DNA from: a virus
Virus record (IMG/VR): IMGVR_UViG_3300030060_007423
Coordinates: 1 to 64,000 of that record
DNA length: 64,000 nt
Reading direction: 5' to 3' (one strand)
Shown: positions 54,638 through 63,972 of the stretch, piece by piece
How positions within the stretch are numbered: the first letter of the stretch is position 1
Layout: each line of letters starts with the position of its first letter
The notes under the pieces: generated by a model
Database searches by the model: none
What the model saw: only the letters and a program-made list of their open reading frames with translations
Told to the model about the DNA's origin: nothing
Program-made: the position numbers and the translations under genes

Positions 54638-54821
54638 AATTTTACAAGATGAGATTAAAGCCAAAAAGTTAGAATTGTCTAAATTACAAGATGATTGTAA
54701 ACATGAAAAAAAACAAATAAAAATGGATGAAACAAACTCCGCAATGTGGGAATGTGAAAATTGTTCAAGACGACTAAGATACCCTACACCTGCAGAGATG
54801 GATATATGGATTAGCAAGTAA
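54612..54821 (+). CDS. Small putative zinc-binding protein
   Basis: CKH ... CENC. Confidence 0.6.
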   Translation: MKTVNQQAKILQDEIKAKKLELSKLQDDCKHEKKQIKMDETNSAMWECENCSRRLRYPTPAEMDIWISK

Positions 54822-55723
54822 TGAACATATTAAGTAGTTATGTAGGAAATACGCCTTTAGTTCCAATTACTATGGGAGGTTACACAGTCTGGTGTAAATG
54901 TGAATTTATGAATCCCGGTGGTTCTGTTAAAGATAGAATGGCCACCCACATATTAAATAGTGCTGAACACAATAAATTAATCAAAAAAGGTGATACACTA
55001 ATAGAGGCAACTTCAGGAAATACTGGAATTGCTTTTGCTATGTTAGCAGCTGAACGAGGTTATAAAATGAAAATTGTTATGCCGTGCAATATGAGCGAAG
55101 AACGTAAACAAATGTTAAAGTTTTATGGCGCCGAATTAATAGAGGTTGATGCAGGTGATTTTGATGCTGCAATTGATTTAAGAGATACACTTGCAAATGC
55201 TAAGGGATGGTTTAATTGTAATCAGTTTCATAACCCACTAAATATAGAAGCACACTATAAAAATACAGGACCAGAGATAGAAAGACAAGTTAGGTCTCAA
55301 CTTGATAGCTATGATTATGATGGATGGCCTCAAGCATTTGTGGCTGGAACAGGTACTGGTGGAACAATTATGGGTTGTGGAAAATACCTACAAAAACATT
55401 ATCCAGGTATAAGTTTAGTTGCAGTTGAACCAGAAGAAAGTGCCGTCATGTCAGGGATGGAACCAGGCTTACATGGTATACAAGGAATTGGTGATGGTAG
55501 TAAGTTTTTAGTAGACTTAAACAAAATTAGTGATATTATAACTGTACATACAGAATGTGCAAAAAAAGTAGCAAAACATTTGGCATTACGATATGGCTTA
55601 TTTGTTGGAATAAGTGCTGGTGCAAATGTTAAGGCCGCATTTGAATGGTTACGTGACAATGATAAAAAACATGCAATAACTATTCTTTGTGATAGAGGTG
55701 AAAGGTATTTTAGTTGCTTATGA
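54821..55723 (+). CDS. cysK: Cysteine synthase (PLP-dependent, CysK/CysM family)
   Basis: GNTPL, NPGGSVKDR, EATSGNTG, NQF.N, GTGGT, HGIQGIG, DRGERY. Confidence 0.93.
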   Translation: MNILSSYVGNTPLVPITMGGYTVWCKCEFMNPGGSVKDRMATHILNSAEHNKLIKKGDTLIEATSGNTGIAFAMLAAERGYKMKIVMPCNMSEERKQMLKFYGAELIEVDAGDFDAAIDLRDTLANAKGWFNCNQFHNPLNIEAHYKNTGPEIERQVRSQLDSYDYDGWPQAFVAGTGTGGTIMGCGKYLQKHYPGISLVAVEPEESAVMSGMEPGLHGIQGIGDGSKFLVDLNKISDIITVHTECAKKVAKHLALRYGLFVGISAGANVKAAFEWLRDNDKKHAITILCDRGERYFSCL

Positions 55724-56430
55724 ATTATTTATTTGATGTAGATGGTACATTAACCCCAAGTAGGTTAAAAATTGATCCAGAATTTGAGAAATTTTTCTTA
55801 AATTGGATGAAAAACAAAGATGTTTATTTAGTTACAGGTTCAGATAAGGATAAAACAATAGAACAAGTAGGTATAAAAATTTGGACAAATGTTACAAGAG
55901 CATATCAATCATGTGGCAATGCTGTTTATGAAAATGGTATGTTAATTGACCAACGTGATTTTATACTAGAGCCTGAACTCAAAAAGCTATTATTAGAATT
56001 TGTAAAGTGGTCAGATTGTCCAAAACAATTTAGTAATCATATTGAGGAAAGAATTGGATTGGTTAACTTTAGTACTATTGGTAGAACTTGTACTCAAGAC
56101 GCAAGAAATGATTATTATAAATGGGACAATAAGATTAAAGAAAGAGAATCTTTTTGTAAAATAATTGAAGAAAAATTTCCAGAATTAGAAGCAACTGTAG
56201 GTGGAGAAATATCAATAGACATTTATCCTAAAGGGCAAAATAAAGCACAAGTGTTAGATGATATAATTGGACCTGTTACATTTTTTGGTGATAAATGCAA
56301 ACCTGGTGGTAATGACTATCCAATAGTAAATCGCTTAGGCATGCTAAATGAAGAAAATGAACTATCAGTAACTGTTCATGAAGTATCTAATTGGAAAGAT
56401 ACATTAAAAATATTAAATAGTTATAAATGA
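55720..56430 (+). CDS. Phosphomannomutase, HAD-IIB (eukaryote-type PMM)
   Basis: FDVDGTLT, VTGSD, IEER.GLVNFS.IGR, GGEISIDI, FFGDK..PGGNDY. Confidence 0.85.
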   Translation: MNYLFDVDGTLTPSRLKIDPEFEKFFLNWMKNKDVYLVTGSDKDKTIEQVGIKIWTNVTRAYQSCGNAVYENGMLIDQRDFILEPELKKLLLEFVKWSDCPKQFSNHIEERIGLVNFSTIGRTCTQDARNDYYKWDNKIKERESFCKIIEEKFPELEATVGGEISIDIYPKGQNKAQVLDDIIGPVTFFGDKCKPGGNDYPIVNRLGMLNEENELSVTVHEVSNWKDTLKILNSYK

Positions 56431-56624
56431 AAAAAGTAAAAATATCATTCTCAAAACCAGTTAAGTTAAATAGGCATGAACCTGTAACTGAAGTGATAAT
56501 AGATAAAACAGTATCCGAAGGTCACAATTCAATTGAAAGAGACATTCAATATATCCTCTGCAATGCAATGAGTGATATGAGATACAAGGGACTAAAATCA
56601 TTTAATGTAGAAATTATAGAATAA
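56427..56624 (+). CDS. Hypothetical protein
   Basis: 65 aa, overlapping both neighbours. Confidence 0.6.
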   Translation: MKKVKISFSKPVKLNRHEPVTEVIIDKTVSEGHNSIERDIQYILCNAMSDMRYKGLKSFNVEIIE

Positions 56625-57481
56625 TGAAATGTATAGTTGGAAATAATTTAACAGCATTGTTAGCATCTCACATATTTAGTGATTTAGATTTTTATAACCA
56701 TGAAAAACAAATGGTTGAAGAATATACATACATTCCTACAACCGCATCTATTATTGATATATTAGATTGTTTAGGTTTAGACTTTTCAATAAAATCATTT
56801 AAGTGTTGTTTTGATAATCGTGGAAAACTATCTGCAAAATTTGATGAAACATTTGTAAATATTTGGTGTATACATACAAGAGGCAAATCAGTTGTTGAGA
56901 AAAGTTACATTGATAATTTATCACATAAGGTAAGTTACATATCAATAAATGATTTACCACCACTTGAAAGTCTAAATATATTAAAATCAGTTTTACTAGA
57001 AAAATCAAATGCAAAATCAACAATATCAGGCATTGAAGAATTAGAAGATTACAAAAAAGTTTTGTGGTGCCATGATTTGCGATTACTCAATAGTGGCATT
57101 ATAACTGAATATGTTGATAGTTATCAGTATATATGTAAGCATTCAGAAGTAGATGGTATAAACCAAATATTTGATGTTGTATATAGCATAGGAAAACCAT
57201 ATTACAGAAAAATTTACTCAGGAGAAAATGTAATATATAGTGCAATGCGAAAAATATATGACAAAACAGTTGATGATAATACAGTTTTAGAATCATCACC
57301 AACAATACAGATTGTTGACAACCTTAGATTAAATTCATTCAAAAAGTTTGACTTATTAGGTGTATATTCACAATGGGATTTAGGTATGAGTTTAGGAAAG
57401 GTACTTATGCGTTGCAATGAACTTAGAGAATATTACATTGATGATAAAAAAATATCTAAAAATATTTTTATTTCTCAATAA
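56624..57481 (+). CDS. Hypothetical protein, possibly a degenerate flavin-binding fold
   Basis: N-terminal CIVGNNLTALLA and C-terminal LLGVYSQW resemble eroded GxGxxG and GRxxxW motifs. Confidence 0.45.
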   Translation: MKCIVGNNLTALLASHIFSDLDFYNHEKQMVEEYTYIPTTASIIDILDCLGLDFSIKSFKCCFDNRGKLSAKFDETFVNIWCIHTRGKSVVEKSYIDNLSHKVSYISINDLPPLESLNILKSVLLEKSNAKSTISGIEELEDYKKVLWCHDLRLLNSGIITEYVDSYQYICKHSEVDGINQIFDVVYSIGKPYYRKIYSGENVIYSAMRKIYDKTVDDNTVLESSPTIQIVDNLRLNSFKKFDLLGVYSQWDLGMSLGKVLMRCNELREYYIDDKKISKNIFISQ

Positions 57482-57524: not shown

Positions 57525-58394
57525 ATGAGAAAATATTGGTCAGTACCAAAAACCGAGTCAGGTAGATACAGCGGTTTACATGAAGCTTTTTATTGGGAAT
57601 TACAAAATATTGTGAATCAACGAAACACAGTAAAAAGTCGTGGAACAAATCAAAAAGAAGTATTGTTTAGAAGTTTTATTATTGATGACCCAACAAATCT
57701 AGGAATTTGGTGGCCAAGTAGAAAATTTAATGAAACATATACATTAGCAGAATTTCTTTGGTATTTGTCAAGAAACCCAAATGCAACTAATATTGGTAAA
57801 TTTGCAAGAATTTGGTTAAACATTAAAGACAACGAGGATAATGTAGAATCAAATTATGGCTGTTATGTTTTTGGAAATCAATGGAACTGGTCTGTAAATG
57901 AATTAACAAAAGACAAGGATAGTCGGCGTGCAACATTTGTTATAGGACAACCATATCATAAAACAAAAAATCCAAATGATATACCATGTACACAATACTT
58001 ACAGTTTTTTATAAGAAATAATAAACTTCATATGGGAGTAAGTATGAGAAGTAATGATATTATTTTTGGAATGTCAAATGATATTTTTATATTTTGTTTA
58101 TTTCAACAATTAATGTATAATGAATTAAAACAAGTATACTCAGATTTAGAACTTGGTTCATATTATCACCATGCAGGAAGTTTACACTTGTATGAAATGC
58201 ACAATGAAATGGCAAATAATATTTTAGTTATTGACGGTGAGGATACTGAATATTATGGAAAGCATTATAAATTAAAAGAACATATAACATTAGATTATAT
58301 ACAACAAACTAAAATGTATTTACCAACTAAAGATATGACAAAAGAAGAAATTGGTGAATATGCAAATGATATTAGTAAAAGTTTATTTATATGA
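57525..58394 (+). CDS. Thymidylate-synthase-fold enzyme, dCMP hydroxymethylase-like
   Basis: DSRRA, DIPCT, MRSNDIIFGMSND (Asp at the specificity position), GSLHLY. Confidence 0.8.
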   Translation: MRKYWSVPKTESGRYSGLHEAFYWELQNIVNQRNTVKSRGTNQKEVLFRSFIIDDPTNLGIWWPSRKFNETYTLAEFLWYLSRNPNATNIGKFARIWLNIKDNEDNVESNYGCYVFGNQWNWSVNELTKDKDSRRATFVIGQPYHKTKNPNDIPCTQYLQFFIRNNKLHMGVSMRSNDIIFGMSNDIFIFCLFQQLMYNELKQVYSDLELGSYYHHAGSLHLYEMHNEMANNILVIDGEDTEYYGKHYKLKEHITLDYIQQTKMYLPTKDMTKEEIGEYANDISKSLFI

Positions 58395-58675
58395 AAAAGA
58401 AAGAATCAATATTAAAAAGAGCAGACGGTATAATCAATAACCGTTCAGAAGAAAAAGAAAGAAAATACGGACCATTTAGCGAAGGCATGGAAAGAGCAGC
58501 TAAAATTGCAAGTGGTATGACAGGAAAAGACTTTGTAGCAGAAGATATGTACGCTGCACTAGTTGCACTAAAATTATCAAGACACTCATATAACTATAGG
58601 GAAGATAATCTACTTGATGCTGTTGCGTATTTAGGAGGTTTGGATAACTATATAAAGGAAAATAAAAATGGCTAG
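58391..58675 (+). CDS. DUF6378-like all-alpha protein (putative dNTP pyrophosphatase fold)
   Basis: YG...A...S...LKLSR....DNLLD...Y pattern. Confidence 0.6.
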   Translation: MKKKESILKRADGIINNRSEEKERKYGPFSEGMERAAKIASGMTGKDFVAEDMYAALVALKLSRHSYNYREDNLLDAVAYLGGLDNYIKENKNG

Positions 58676-58853
58676 AAAAATAGTAAGAAAATGGAACCCA
58701 GATTATAAAAAAGCATGGGTAAGGGTAGCTTTACAAAATGCATTAAGTACAATAGATTATGGTGAGCTATCAACCGCAAGTAAAAGACTTATATCTCAAG
58801 TACTAGCAGAATGTGATATAAAGGCAAAGGAAAAAGAGGAGATGGTAAAATGA
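58668..58853 (+). CDS. Hypothetical protein
   Basis: 61 aa; AAGGA upstream; overlaps neighbours. Confidence 0.6.
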   Translation: MARKIVRKWNPDYKKAWVRVALQNALSTIDYGELSTASKRLISQVLAECDIKAKEKEEMVK

Positions 58854-59287
58854 AAATATCAAAAGTAAGAGAAGTAAAAACACCAATAAGAGCAAATAGT
58901 ACAGACGCAGGAATAGATTTTTTTGTACCTGAAGACACAAAGAGATTCACATTATCACCAGGAGATTCTTGTCTTATTCCATCAGGTGTAAAAGTAAATG
59001 TACCTGAAGGGTTTGCTTTAGTAGCATTTAATAAATCAGGAGTTGCAGTTAAAAAATCTTTACATGTTGGGGCATGTGTAGTTGACTGTGGCTATCAAGG
59101 AGAAGTTCACATTAATCTAACAAATGTTGGTGATTGTGAAACTGATATAAATCCCGGTGATAAAATAGTTCAGTTTGTATTATTACCTTTAGGCAATCCT
59201 AAAGTAGAATTGGTAGAAGAAAGCAACTTATATGAATCAGAATCTTCAAGAGGTGAAGGAGGATTTGGAAGTACTGGGACTAAATAA
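58850..59287 (+). CDS. dut: Trimeric dUTPase
   Basis: AGID, KSG, VVDCGYQGE, GDKIVQ, RGEGGFGSTG. Confidence 0.95.
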   Translation: MKISKVREVKTPIRANSTDAGIDFFVPEDTKRFTLSPGDSCLIPSGVKVNVPEGFALVAFNKSGVAVKKSLHVGACVVDCGYQGEVHINLTNVGDCETDINPGDKIVQFVLLPLGNPKVELVEESNLYESESSRGEGGFGSTGTK

Positions 59288-59673
59288 TGAGTGGATTAGA
59301 TAACAGACCAAAGACAATATTTTGTGATATAGATGGTACACTAGTAAAACACATGGCGCCATCAGAGGCAACATCTCCATATAACAAAATGGAAGTAATA
59401 CCTGGAACAATTGAAAAATTATTAGAGTGGGAAAGAAAAGGTTACAATATAATTTTAACAACTGGTAGAAAAGCATGTATGAGAAAACAAACTGAAAATC
59501 AACTTGCTGAGGCTGGGATAGTTTATGACCAATTAGTAATGGGATTTGGTGGTGGTGCAAGATACTTGATAAATGATATGAAAACAGATGGAAGAAATGC
59601 CACTGCATTTGCAATAAACCTTAAAAGAAATACAGAAGGAATAAAGGATATAAATTTAGACCTTCCGTACTAA
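59287..59673 (+). CDS. Small HAD-family phosphatase
   Basis: FCDIDGTL, LTTGR, YDQLVMG, IND. Confidence 0.85.
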   Translation: MSGLDNRPKTIFCDIDGTLVKHMAPSEATSPYNKMEVIPGTIEKLLEWERKGYNIILTTGRKACMRKQTENQLAEAGIVYDQLVMGFGGGARYLINDMKTDGRNATAFAINLKRNTEGIKDINLDLPY

Positions 59674-59907: not shown

Positions 59908-61491
59908 ATGAATAACACAACAGTAATAATACCAGCAGCTGGGTTGGCAACAAGAATGAGGCCACTTTCAAGTAACATGTCAAAGGCAATGATACCTGTT
60001 TGTGGTAAACCTATTATTTCATACATCATAGATGAATTATTAAAATATGATAGTGTAAATGAAATAATCATTGTTGAAAATAAATTGCATGATATTAGTG
60101 AGTTTGTTAAATCTACATATTCATTTGTTGAAAACACATTTAAGTTTGTTGAACAAAAAAACCCTAAAGGGCCACTCCATGCAATTGAAGTAGGTTGGAA
60201 AAAATCAACAAAGAAAGACAACTCTATATTGGTCTGGTTAGGTGATACTATTTGTCGTGATAAATTAAATTTTGATAGTCCAGGATTTTTAGGTGTATCA
60301 AAAATTGAGCAAAAATCAAGATGGTGTTTAGTTGATAGTGACGGTAAAACATTTTATGATAAACCTGATACAGATGTACCAACAGATTCTGCTCTTATTG
60401 GTTTATATTATTTCAATGATAGAAAATGGTTTAATGACTCCATTAAGAAAGGAATGAATAAACCTCAACATAAAGGTGAACATCAAATAGCTGCACTACT
60501 TTCAGAATATCTTACCTATATACCTAAATTTGAGCTATTAGATACTAAAGAATGGTATGATTGTGGTGAATTAAAAACGTATTATGAATCAACAGCCCGT
60601 TTAATGCAAGGTTCATCTAGAGAGTTCAATACACTTGAGATAGATACATTTTTAGGTACAATTACTAAAAAGGCAACTGGCGATAAAGCACTTAAGATTG
60701 AGAAAGAAAAGACTTGGTTTAGTACATTAAGTGATACACAACGGCTATTTGTACCACAAATTTTAGAATCTCAACATGGCGAAATGAAAATGTCATGGGA
60801 AGCAGGTACACCACTAAATGAAGTTTGGTTATATGAAAGAATGAATGCTGATACATGGATAGGTGTTACAAACTCAGTGTTAGATATATACCACAAAGTA
60901 TTCTATAATTCAGGAAAAGAAAGACTTGCAGATTGCTATGAAATGTATATTCAAAAAAATATGGATAGATTAGATAGTGATATGTATAGTGATTTTGTGG
61001 CAAAGGATACTGCAAAAAATTTCATTAAATCTTCAGGCCTTAGATTATTAAAGACAACTAAATGGAGTAATAGAATTCATGGTGATTTACATTTAGGTAA
61101 TATGTTGTTTAATAGTCATAATGGTAGAATTAAGTTACTAGACCCAAGAGGCCATTTTGGAATGTCAGAGTTTTCTGGTGATTCACAATATGATATGGGT
61201 AAATTAATGCATGATTGGTACTGTGGATATATGATGATATTATCTGGAAGATATCACATTGAAGGCTCAGATGTAATACTACATTGGGATGAAGAAAAAA
61301 GAAATAAAATATTAGTTAATATGCTAATTAAAATGAAAGGTTATGGGTATGATGTTGAAAATATTAAGAGACTTTCAATAATGTTATTTTTAACATGTAT
61401 CCCATTTCACCAAGACAATCCAGAAAGATGTAGAGCTTTTTGGTTACGAGCAATGAATTTAATATATAGGGAATTTAGAAATGAAAAATGA
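59908..61491 (+). CDS. Sugar-phosphate nucleotidyltransferase fused to an APH/choline-kinase-like domain
   Basis: IPAAGLATRMRP..SKAM.P, LGD, WYDCG; HGDLHLGN and LLDPRG. Confidence 0.88.
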   Translation: MNNTTVIIPAAGLATRMRPLSSNMSKAMIPVCGKPIISYIIDELLKYDSVNEIIIVENKLHDISEFVKSTYSFVENTFKFVEQKNPKGPLHAIEVGWKKSTKKDNSILVWLGDTICRDKLNFDSPGFLGVSKIEQKSRWCLVDSDGKTFYDKPDTDVPTDSALIGLYYFNDRKWFNDSIKKGMNKPQHKGEHQIAALLSEYLTYIPKFELLDTKEWYDCGELKTYYESTARLMQGSSREFNTLEIDTFLGTITKKATGDKALKIEKEKTWFSTLSDTQRLFVPQILESQHGEMKMSWEAGTPLNEVWLYERMNADTWIGVTNSVLDIYHKVFYNSGKERLADCYEMYIQKNMDRLDSDMYSDFVAKDTAKNFIKSSGLRLLKTTKWSNRIHGDLHLGNMLFNSHNGRIKLLDPRGHFGMSEFSGDSQYDMGKLMHDWYCGYMMILSGRYHIEGSDVILHWDEEKRNKILVNMLIKMKGYGYDVENIKRLSIMLFLTCIPFHQDNPERCRAFWLRAMNLIYREFRNEK

Positions 61492-62752
61492 AAACATTAA
61501 AGTAGCTATCTTTGTTTTAGGTGGTGCAATTAAATTTGTAAAGAAGAATCTTAAACGTGCTGATGGAACTAATGAGTATTATAAACTTATAAAGTCACTC
61601 TGTGCTAATCCAAAAATTGGTGAAGTACTAATTATTCAAAAAAGTGATTGGGGAAAACTTGACGATGAGTTAAAACAAGAATATGACCCACGTGGAGTTT
61701 TAAGATATATCTATGATGAATTAGACCCAAAGGATATTAGACCTGATAAGGGTGAAGATATGCAATTGACATTAAACTATCAAAAGCTTGATGAATATCT
61801 AAATCACGATGAAACAAAACCAGATTTTGGTTTAGGATTTATTGGACCTGGTTATATGACAAATAATGTTATACCAAATTTTTTAGATGGTGTTCGTGAT
61901 CCTAGTTCAAAAGTAAAACTTTTAGGTATGACATATAATTATTCTTCACCAATTGTACACTACTTAAATAAATCAGACCTTCCTTGGTTTATGATATGTA
62001 CAGATCCAAGATATACAAAGCCAACATTCAAAGCAAAGGATACTGTAAACTATCCAAAAGAAATAATTGCACAATACAACACAACAAGTATTTGGCACAG
62101 CTTAAAGGAATATAGAAACGATGCTGAATTTGAAGATAAGACATTAAATGTAAGATATAGTGGAATAGAAAAACTTAATCTTGTAGATGAAGAAATTATC
62201 AACCCAGATAATAGCAGACCTAATAAATTTACAATAGTTGCAATGCAAAGTGTAACAGGTCAAGCAACAAAGGACAAAAGGTTTGATGCAATTAAGGAAT
62301 GGATTCTTGACCGTGATACAAACCAAGAGGTTGAAATATATGGAAAATGGAAGGAACACTTTACAGATGGTTACCCACAATTTAAGGGATATGTTACACC
62401 AGCTGAAATAGACCAAAAGTTTAAGGAAACTAGGTATACATTAGTTGTACCAATTGGACCTGATTGGGTAACAAGCAAATATGCTGAGGTACTCTTAATG
62501 GGTGTTGTACCTTTTTTCCATCCAACATACGATACACAAGGAAATGTTTTACCACTTAATCACTTTTGTAGGGTTTCAAGTCCACAAGAATTTTATGATA
62601 AAATGAAATTCTTAGATGATGTCCCAGAAAAGAGAATACAATTGGTTAAATTATTACAGGACAATTTAATAAAAAATGTTACAGATGGATCATTTGTATA
62701 TGACATTGTAAATAAATCATTAGAAAACACAAATATAGGAGTTAGAATATGA
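61481..62752 (+). CDS. DNA glycosyltransferase, T4 beta-glucosyltransferase-like (GT-B)
   Basis: KVAIF.LG, TNE, TDPR, IEK, FKG, WVTSKYAE, YDT align in order with T4 BGT features as recalled. Confidence 0.75.
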   Translation: MKNENIKVAIFVLGGAIKFVKKNLKRADGTNEYYKLIKSLCANPKIGEVLIIQKSDWGKLDDELKQEYDPRGVLRYIYDELDPKDIRPDKGEDMQLTLNYQKLDEYLNHDETKPDFGLGFIGPGYMTNNVIPNFLDGVRDPSSKVKLLGMTYNYSSPIVHYLNKSDLPWFMICTDPRYTKPTFKAKDTVNYPKEIIAQYNTTSIWHSLKEYRNDAEFEDKTLNVRYSGIEKLNLVDEEIINPDNSRPNKFTIVAMQSVTGQATKDKRFDAIKEWILDRDTNQEVEIYGKWKEHFTDGYPQFKGYVTPAEIDQKFKETRYTLVVPIGPDWVTSKYAEVLLMGVVPFFHPTYDTQGNVLPLNHFCRVSSPQEFYDKMKFLDDVPEKRIQLVKLLQDNLIKNVTDGSFVYDIVNKSLENTNIGVRI

Positions 62753-63972
62753 GCGAAATAAAATGGGCAACTATTATCCCACTTATAGGTGGTAGTGCAA
62801 TAGGTTGCAATATGACAACAAAAAATCAACCAGTAGGACACTTAACATATAATGCTTTTGCAGCAAATGAATCACATATTAGAAGACATTGGCCAGATGT
62901 ACCATATCATTCTTTAGATGAGGGAACTATTCCTAATTTAGGTTCTCTTGATTTTGTAAATAGTGTATGCCCATGTGCTGGGTTATCGATGTTAAATTCA
63001 TCTGCTATTGAAGGTAGTATTAATAAGAGAGGTAGTGATGCTGCACAGAATGAATGGATGTATAAATCAACTAGAGTTGTATTGGAAAATTATAAACCTA
63101 AAGTATTATGGGGTGAAAATGCACCGGGACTATTTACCAAGCTTGGTGAAGGCGTAGTTGAAAAATTAAAAGCTATTGGAAAGGAATATGATTATAGTTT
63201 TTCAATGATTAAAACAAATACAGAATTACATGGTATACCACAAAGAAGAATTAGAACATTTTACTTTTTTTGGAAAGGTACTAAGCCACCTATATTTGAT
63301 TGGTATAAAAAAGACTGTAAAACATTAGCAGATTATTTAGCAGAAGTACCAGCTGATGCAAGTTGTCAAGATATGTTTATGGTACCAGGAACTGTAACTG
63401 ACCACTTTAAGCCATATCAGTTTATTCTTGAAAGAGAGGGTAAAACACATCAGGAATTTGTTGAATGGTGGAATCATGGAACGTTATATCAATACCTTGA
63501 AAAATATGAACTTGTACATGACTGTATTGATTGGTTAAAGAAATACCACCCAGAAGCAGGCTTTAGTAAAAAGAATGGTACAAATACATTTATCAGTATG
63601 TTAGAACATGTACTTAAAAAGAGGTCAATGGGATTAGGATATTGGGATAGTTCACCTCATATTTTTAGTAAATCATTTAATGCATTGATTGGTAGAAACA
63701 TGTTTAATGGTGTACACCCAACTGAAAATAGGTACTTAAATGTTAGAGAATTTTTACACTTAATGGGATTACCTCACGACTTTGCAATTGAAGATGTAAA
63801 GCAAGTAAATCATATTGCACAAAATGTACCAACATGTACTGCAAGAGATATGACTGAACAAGTTGTAAAATATATCAATGGTGAATTACAAACAGCAGAT
63901 GGCTATTTTGTAAAGCAAGACAATACGAATAGAAAAATTACACAAGAATCTTTACAAACGCAATTGTTTTAA
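62749..63972 (+). CDS. C5 cytosine DNA methyltransferase-like protein with atypical SAM-binding motifs
   Basis: PCAGLS (IV), ENAPGL (VI), PQRRIRTF (VIII), LNVREFLHLMG (IX); motif I reads IPLIGG, motif X IAQNVP. Confidence 0.85.
   Translation: MSEIKWATIIPLIGGSAIGCNMTTKNQPVGHLTYNAFAANESHIRRHWPDVPYHSLDEGTIPNLGSLDFVNSVCPCAGLSMLNSSAIEGSINKRGSDAAQNEWMYKSTRVVLENYKPKVLWGENAPGLFTKLGEGVVEKLKAIGKEYDYSFSMIKTNTELHGIPQRRIRTFYFFWKGTKPPIFDWYKKDCKTLADYLAEVPADASCQDMFMVPGTVTDHFKPYQFILEREGKTHQEFVEWWNHGTLYQYLEKYELVHDCIDWLKKYHPEAGFSKKNGTNTFISMLEHVLKKRSMGLGYWDSSPHIFSKSFNALIGRNMFNGVHPTENRYLNVREFLHLMGLPHDFAIEDVKQVNHIAQNVPTCTARDMTEQVVKYINGELQTADGYFVKQDNTNRKITQESLQTQLF

Follow-up and report, generated by a model that had tools for sequence, protein, structure and literature searches.

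An essentially viral clade of C5-methyltransferase-fold proteins with altered cofactor motifs is linked to gp42-type thymidylate synthase-fold genes

This study deals with a gene of the cytosine C5-methyltransferase (C5-MTase) fold, located near the end of a 64,000-nucleotide (nt) stretch of viral DNA (positions 1 to 64,000 of the IMG/VR record IMGVR_UViG_3300030060_007423), which is referred to as the window. The genes of the clade to which it belongs are tightly linked in their genomes to thymidylate synthase (TS)-fold enzymes of the gp42 type and to genes for tailoring reactions at the DNA level. The MTase is probably part of a 5-hydroxymethylcytosine (hmC) modification pathway, and as its function we tentatively favour methylation, dependent on S-adenosylmethionine (SAM), of those cytosines that escape the substitution by hmC.

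C5-MTases and pre-replicative substitution by hmC are normally seen as alternative routes, because a substituent at C5 of cytosine leaves no place for methylation. A large viral clade of the C5-MTase fold that is tied to deoxycytidine monophosphate (dCMP)-type TS enzymes therefore needs an explanation. The gene, its motifs and its two most important neighbours are located in the window as follows:

62749 to 63972, plus strand: C5-MTase-fold gene (protein P0001, 407 amino acids) of a virus-restricted variant clade, recognized by profile match, motifs and model
62737 to 62741, plus strand: AGGAG ribosome-binding site, 8 nt ahead of the MTase ATG at 62749
62773 to 62793, plus strand: motif I variant IIPLIGG (residues 9-15); canonical FxGxGG, Phe changed to Ile and the first Gly to Leu
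62971 to 62988, plus strand: motif IV PCAGLS (PC = residues 75-76); catalytic Cys76 retained, Ala at the position of HhaI Gln82
63112 to 63132, plus strand: motif VI GENAPGL (ENA = residues 123-125); ENA for ENV, Glu123 invariant
63235 to 63273, plus strand: motif VIII IPQRRIRTFYFFW (QRRIR = residues 165-169); QxRxR intact
63811 to 63831, plus strand: motif X HIAQNVP (IAQNVP = residues 356-361); canonical GNxVP, Gln358 at the position of HhaI Asn304
57525 to 58394, plus strand: gp42-type TS-fold enzyme, predicted dCMP hydroxymethylase (RSND...SND)
61481 to 62752, plus strand: glycosyltransferase (GT)-like protein of 423 amino acids with weak matches to BGT and Glyco_trans_1_2, abutting the MTase gene

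The TS-fold protein matched best the CMP/dCMP hydroxymethylases MilA and T4 gp42, and its residue at the position of gp42-D179 is Asp. Asp occupies both the ThyA-N177 and the ThyA-D169 positions, of which the former implies specificity for dCMP. The exchange D169N is the signature of 5-hydroxy-dCMP synthases (PMC13326640); it is missing from the window enzyme, in which the ThyA-D169 position stays Asp. Together with the GT-like gene, this TS-fold gene bears out the preliminary description, which had been made from the letters of the window and placed the MTase next to hmC genes.

For a comparison across lineages, 80 IMG/VR loci were sampled, which represent 16 lineages at 70% MTase identity. 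Each of the 16 lineages possesses, at most 10 kb from the MTase gene and on the same strand, a TS-fold gene of the Asp type or a gene homologous to the GT-like one of the window; a TS gene lies within 10 kb in 11 of them. A co-occurrence of IPLIGG-type MTases with dCMP-type TS enzymes, which the preliminary description had proposed to look for, was found in every isolate lineage and, counted on the same contig, in 13 of the 16 metagenomic lineages. Most of the contigs that lack a TS-like gene are only 11-28% complete. The largest lineage (48 loci, 60-65% identity) has its GT-like gene 2.3-2.9 kb upstream of the MTase gene, and its TS-like gene is 45-60 kb off and visible only in longer contigs. 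As a base rate, any homologue of the window TS-like protein (E ≤ 1e-5) is present in 1097 of 50,697 phage records (2.2%).

All 22 TS-like genes of the loci read RSxD...D, and 15 more from elsewhere in the contigs are likewise of the Asp type, whereas canonical ThyA copies in the same genomes retain Asn. The TS-like proteins of the isolates are also Asp-type, namely the 'ThyA' of S-TIM61 (PLD), the protein of XG4 (PND) and the second TS-like protein of phage G (PYD).

Beside the TS-like genes, GT-like homologues were detected 1.3-9.8 kb upstream of the MTase gene in most lineages, and homologues of a nucleotidyltransferase-kinase fusion about 5 kb upstream of it in three other lineages. The ATG of the MTase gene overlaps the stop codon of the preceding 423-codon gene (ATGA), which suggests translational coupling of the MTase to the GT-like gene directly upstream. 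A GT-like gene occupies this place in the window, L006 and L055, while in the lineage of L008 and L058-L064 it is taken by HMUDK_hel (5-hydroxymethyl-deoxyuridine DNA kinase-like; 29.5 bits, cut-off 25). The directly upstream gene thus differs by lineage, and in both cases seen it encodes a DNA-level tailoring enzyme.

The linkage could also reflect nothing but the clustering of genes for DNA metabolism around an orphan MTase of the ordinary anti-restriction kind that is functionally independent of hmC. Phage MTases often sit in DNA-metabolism modules, and genes for DNA polymerase B, a helicase, ribonucleotide reductase and an exonuclease share the module here. However, the linkage persists through rearrangement (TS gene upstream, downstream or 50 kb distant) over 34-65% identity and is found again in three isolate lineages; moreover, cellular genomes lack the family almost entirely. 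This explanation is consequently regarded as improbable.

A profile score above the curated cut-off and the fold place the protein in the C5-cytosine DNA methyltransferase superfamily. The profile PF00145 matched with 54.2 bits (E 2e-14, cut-off 22), starting only at residue 49, and PHROGs returned only the generic phrog_116. Sequence matches in the PDB are M.HhaI and M.HaeIII, which span motifs IV-VIII and IX-X; the N-terminal 79 residues yielded no PDB match by sequence even at E 10. A megablast against isolate phages gave no match. In its own genome of 170.8 kb (estimated 80% complete), the MTase is the only PF00145 gene.

With M.HhaI and M.HaeIII (PF00145) the protein shares the fold, the order of the motifs, Pro-Cys of motif IV, Glu of motif VI and QxRxR of motif VIII. 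The present clade differs from them in IPLIGG, in Ala for Gln82, in ENA for ENV and in AQNVP for GN(S/A)VP, in an N-terminal stretch of 60 residues that cannot be recognized from its sequence, and in its restriction to viruses and its tie to dCMP-type TS genes. In the profile alignment to M.HaeIII, I-A-Q-N-V-P falls on I-G-N-A-V-P.

The conservation of these motifs was followed in 129 proteins that represent clusters at 50% identity, with identities as low as about 34%. Catalytic residues are kept (C76 in 127 of 129, R167 and R169 in all, E123 invariant). Motif I departs from FxGxGG in a constant manner (P11 in 120 and L12 in 123 of 124, G14 in 124), position 77 is A, S or G and never the Gln that follows Pro-Cys elsewhere, A125 occurs in all 129, and motif X has Q358 (124) and N359 (121) in place of N-S/A and thus no Gly-Asn. 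Furthermore, N40-D/E41 and W103 are invariant, and Y/F/W34 and D/N/E57 are conserved. The preliminary description had read PC, ENA and QxRxR as intact and IIPLIGG and IAQNVP as altered, which agrees with this near-invariance. Judged from the alignment, the variant motifs are family characters and not the result of decay or idiosyncratic change, and with the covalent-catalysis set of Cys76, Glu123 and Arg167/169 intact the enzyme appears catalytically equipped.

An AlphaFold2 model of the MTase, calculated with 25 relatives, reached a predicted local distance difference test score of 88.9 and a predicted template modelling score of 0.87; the catalytic loop (residues 77-98) is not confident. The model retrieved M.HaeIII (Foldseek E 1e-13), MET1, DIM2, ZMET2, CmoX (8YF3, rank 7) and M.HhaI as structural matches. 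In the model, beta3 ends at D57 and beta2 at Y34, and the conserved N40-D/E41 lies in the following helix. The adenine-binding Asp at the end of beta3 (D/N/E57) thus seems to be retained, and this residue together with the invariant N40-D/E41 and W103 suggests that an adenosyl-type ligand is still bound. In M.HhaI, Gln82 of motif IV and Asn304 of motif X abut the transferable group (PMC3526304, Lukinavicius et al.). By its residues, the predicted pocket is remodelled family-wide at the positions facing the transferred group and C5 of cytosine. The predicted complex of the GT-like protein with the MTase scored 0.00, which counts neither way.

The family comprises more than 3000 clusters at 90% identity and 313 clusters at 50% identity (E < 1e-30), and 333 stretches of IMG/VR match it. 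Its clusters in the ESM Atlas are 94-100% Viruses, and only five loci were found among 185,579 genomes of prokaryote species, four of which look like phage contigs in bins of metagenome-assembled genomes, with a TS-like gene nearby. The clade is thus essentially viral. Isolate carriers are the S-TIM5 cyanophage group, Pseudoalteromonas phage XG4 and, more distantly, Bacillus phage G with gp301 (motif X IAQGVP, motif I FIFGG). Neither the clade nor its gene association was found described in the searchable literature, nothing relevant was found on dCMP hydroxymethylase plus cytosine methyltransferase in phages, and C5-MTases are not mentioned in the MetaGPA paper.

Beside the phage proteins, long forms of 600-1460 amino acids occur, which show the same IPLIGG, VCPCAGLS, GENAPGL and xQNVP motifs and have Lys/Glu-rich tails. 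They lie on contigs of low gene density beside SH3, RhoGEF and Ctr fragments, are present as several transcripts in the transcriptome of the copepod Neocalanus flemingeri, and one of them carries a CXXC zinc finger. Single-exon long copies were located as follows:

7065 to 9386 of L117 and 421 to 2235 of L119; further, the proteins P0044, P0078, P0122, P0297 and P0313

In a quick tree, whose root is unsure, the long forms cluster together and adjoin the largest phage lineage. The long copies point to a transfer of the gene, in either direction, between phages and a marine eukaryote. In eukaryote-like hosts, the enzyme would be expected to act on unmodified cytosine with SAM. Additionally, an MT-like domain is joined to a weak Tet_JBP match in P0253. 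At positions 5898-14696 of L080, the one lineage without a nearby Asp-type TS gene, the MTase-like gene is located between two DUF6734 proteins and is followed by three 2-oxoglutarate-Fe(II) oxygenases (one weakly TET-like), Methyltransf_24 and GT25; this arrangement may represent a version of the pathway that works post-replicatively.

According to the reading that we favour, the clade would be a fixed part of pre-replicative cytosine-hypermodification modules that depend on gp42-type dCMP hydroxymethylases. The MTase would still use SAM, seated in a re-built adenosyl pocket, and would act after replication on cytosines that were incorporated into the phage DNA unsubstituted. Such cytosines are plausible because no dCTPase of the gp56/MazG type is present; a search of the own genome for a MazG-type dCTPase (PF03819) gave no match, and only a trimeric dUTPase-family protein was found. 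By converting these cytosines to 5-methylcytosine (5mC), the enzyme would leave no bare cytosine beside hmC or glycosyl-hmC. Plain methylation is favoured in at least some members because of the eukaryote-like copies, the CXXC fusion, the weak TET fusion and the oxygenases of L080. That no conserved cofactor-synthase partner was seen across the lineages likewise speaks for it.

Several observations weigh against plain methylation. Leu invariantly replaces the first Gly of FxGxGG in the family, the equivalents of both HhaI Gln82 and Asn304 are replaced throughout, and in the model the ribose-binding acid of the beta2 end does not seem to be at its canonical place. NCBIfam dcm reached only 34 bits and thus stayed far short of its cut-off of 100.65. 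For an ordinary MTase, there is no obvious reason either for the near-absence from the prokaryote genomes or for the confinement to genomes with dCMP-type TS enzymes. In addition, it is conceivable that the dUTPase-family neighbour acts as a dCTPase, in which case bare cytosine would not remain.

It is possible, although we consider it doubtful, that the clade no longer methylates and that the covalent activation of C6 serves to derivatise hmC (or an activated ester) or to install a group other than methyl. In the case of hmC, Cys76 would attack C6 of hmC, or of a phosphorylated or glycosylated form of it, in the DNA without SAM. The ring would then expel the leaving group of the C5 substituent and a nucleophile would be added, or formaldehyde would be released site-specifically, and the old cofactor pocket would hold the co-substrate. 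The universal partner of the MTase is an enzyme making 5-substituted dCMP, and the apparent translational coupling to a DNA-level tailoring enzyme exists in two unrelated forms (GT-like here, HMUDK_hel in L008). The exchanges of Q82 to Ala, ENV to ENA and GN to AQ would reshape the space around C5, and C5-MTases without SAM reportedly derivatise or dehydroxymethylate hmC in vitro, according to work of the Klimasauskas laboratory. However, the copies in a eukaryotic context share the motifs without a visible hmC pathway, and W103 and the conserved Asp that closes beta3 point to a ligand of the adenosyl type. Phages of the T4 type glucosylate their hmC with no enzyme of this sort, and we know of no natural precedent for the tailoring of hmC by a C5-MTase. 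Such a function of the MTase is therefore considered unlikely.

A group larger than methyl might instead be moved from a modified SAM onto C5 of cytosine, following the logic of CmoX and carboxy-SAM. CmoX, the DNA cytosine C5-carboxymethyltransferase of Synechococcus phage S-B43 (PDB 8YF3), is likewise a phage C5-MTase homologue from a hypermodification cluster in which the Asn of motif X is replaced. Its cofactor was switched by a change at the HhaI-Asn304 position, which is Arg350, and it uses carboxy-SAM supplied by a phage CmoA (PMC12783734, Yang et al.). In M.HhaI, Q82A lowers methylation about 16-fold and raises the transfer of larger groups, and Q82A plus N304A open the enzyme to bulky groups (PMC3526304). 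Both positions differ family-wide in the present clade; those mutated in the engineered M.HhaI Q82A/Y254S/N304A to open the pocket are here replaced naturally. In contrast to that variant, the natural family has Gln and not Ala at the Asn304 position, plus Leu in motif I, and the changes of the first Gly to Leu and of Asn to Gln add bulk instead of removing it. CmoX retains Phe25, Glu47/Phe48 and Asp69, has SPPC and Arg350 and needs CmoA (PMC12783734), whereas the MTase has VCPC and Gln358 and its own genome gave no match to CmoA (TIGR00740); an assignment as a CmoX-type enzyme was ruled out by these differences. As no candidate cofactor synthase is conserved among the lineages either, the transfer of a larger group is given little credence. 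What remains of the probability falls to non-catalytic or other roles.

The suggestion of the preliminary description, an enzyme that tailors hmC or uses another cofactor, holds in part. The altered positions do govern the transferred group (PMC3526304, PMC12783734), dCMP-type TS enzymes co-occur and tailoring genes lie around, but plain methylation is favoured in some members.

The C5-MTs of phages that are coupled to TET/5mYOX also lie beside GTs in clusters for cytosine hypermodification, which in their case is post-replicative (Burke et al. 2021, PMC8256090). Some of these clades, in which motifs are disturbed, showed no activity in E. coli (PMC8256090). The partner of the present MTase differs from theirs in being a pre-replicative TS-fold enzyme; no Tet_JBP match above the cut-off was detected in the own genome or in any of 34 related contigs, and in the own genome the profiles Tet_JBP, 2OG-FeII_Oxy_3 and PhyH (PF12851, PF13640 and PF05721) gave no match. 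With the hmC system of T4, consisting of gp42 and beta-glucosyltransferase, the window has in common a gp42-type TS enzyme with Asp and a weakly BGT-like GT. It differs from T4 in that no gp56/MazG dCTPase was found and in that it possesses its own genes for nucleoside diphosphate sugars. To our knowledge, T-even phages have no C5-MTase-fold gene.

The remaining genes upstream of the MTase in the window are the following:

54821 to 55723: cysK-like PALP enzyme
55714 to 56430: PMM/HAD protein
56624 to 57481: unknown protein
58391 to 58675, plus strand: DUF6378 protein between the TS-like and dUTPase genes, conserved
58850 to 59287, plus strand: trimeric dUTPase-family protein, conserved beside the TS-like gene
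59287 to 59673: HAD protein
59908 to 61491, plus strand: sugar-1-phosphate nucleotidyltransferase fused to a kinase-like domain, 527 amino acids

Downstream of the MTase gene follow small open reading frames, DNA polymerase B, a GroEL-like protein, a PD-(D/E)XK nuclease, an adenylylsulfate (APS) kinase-HAD protein and more GTs. DUF6378 is conserved between Asp-type TS and dUTPase-family genes in at least six lineages and is a candidate part of a nucleotide-level step, e.g. the exclusion of dCTP.

The cysteine synthase (the PALP enzyme) had previously been proposed as a thiol source. This had to be rejected, since, apart from the window, PALP is found with the MTase in the 92%-identical phage L010 alone. 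Positions 9128-10236 of L002, 7-8 kb past the end of the window, encode an APS-kinase/HAD fusion plus a small cytidylyltransferase-like protein, followed by two GT1 and one GT2; taken with the cysK-like gene, these genes hint that the phage carries out sulfur or sulfation chemistry.

Other carriers showed further gene combinations. In L008 (3603-12150) the order is TS-like, DUF6378, dUTPase, unknown, myo-inositol-1-phosphate synthase, FkbM-type methyltransferase, HMUDK_hel kinase-like, MTase-like and epimerase, which suggests that the cytosine adduct of this 242 kb phage is of the phospho or inositol type. In Cyanophage S-TIM61 (L003, 8781-9617), the product annotated as 'ThyA' in the S-TIM5 group carries Asp where the specificity for dUMP or dCMP is set, and it is encoded 3 kb from the MTase-like gene; by this residue, it is probably a dCMP-modifying enzyme. 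In Bacillus phage G (L004, 1286-9068), gp301 is located near the alpha-glucosyltransferase gp306, the sugar-1-phosphate thymidylyltransferase gp309 and the HAD protein gp310. The genome of this phage encodes a canonical ThyA as well as a TS-like protein of the Asp type, the gene of which lies 13 kb from gp301. A canonical ThyA (Asn) plus an Asp-type TS homologue are also present in several large phages (G007, G008, G010 and G032, the contigs behind L038, L039, L046 and L087). The presence of both types in several of these large phages implies separate syntheses of dTMP and of modified dCMP.

For annotation, the family signature PLxGG, PC[ASG], ENAP and QNVP allows the clade to be told from ordinary Dcm-like genes. 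If the enzyme is a backup methylase, it would close the gaps of an incomplete hmC substitution and represent a new, two-layered anti-restriction strategy. If the clade no longer methylates, it would provide a new enzymatic step in the hypermodification of phage cytosine and a natural counterpart of the 'methyltransferase-directed' hmC chemistry known from in vitro work, and such new DNA chemistry would be of potential use in tools for hmC labelling.

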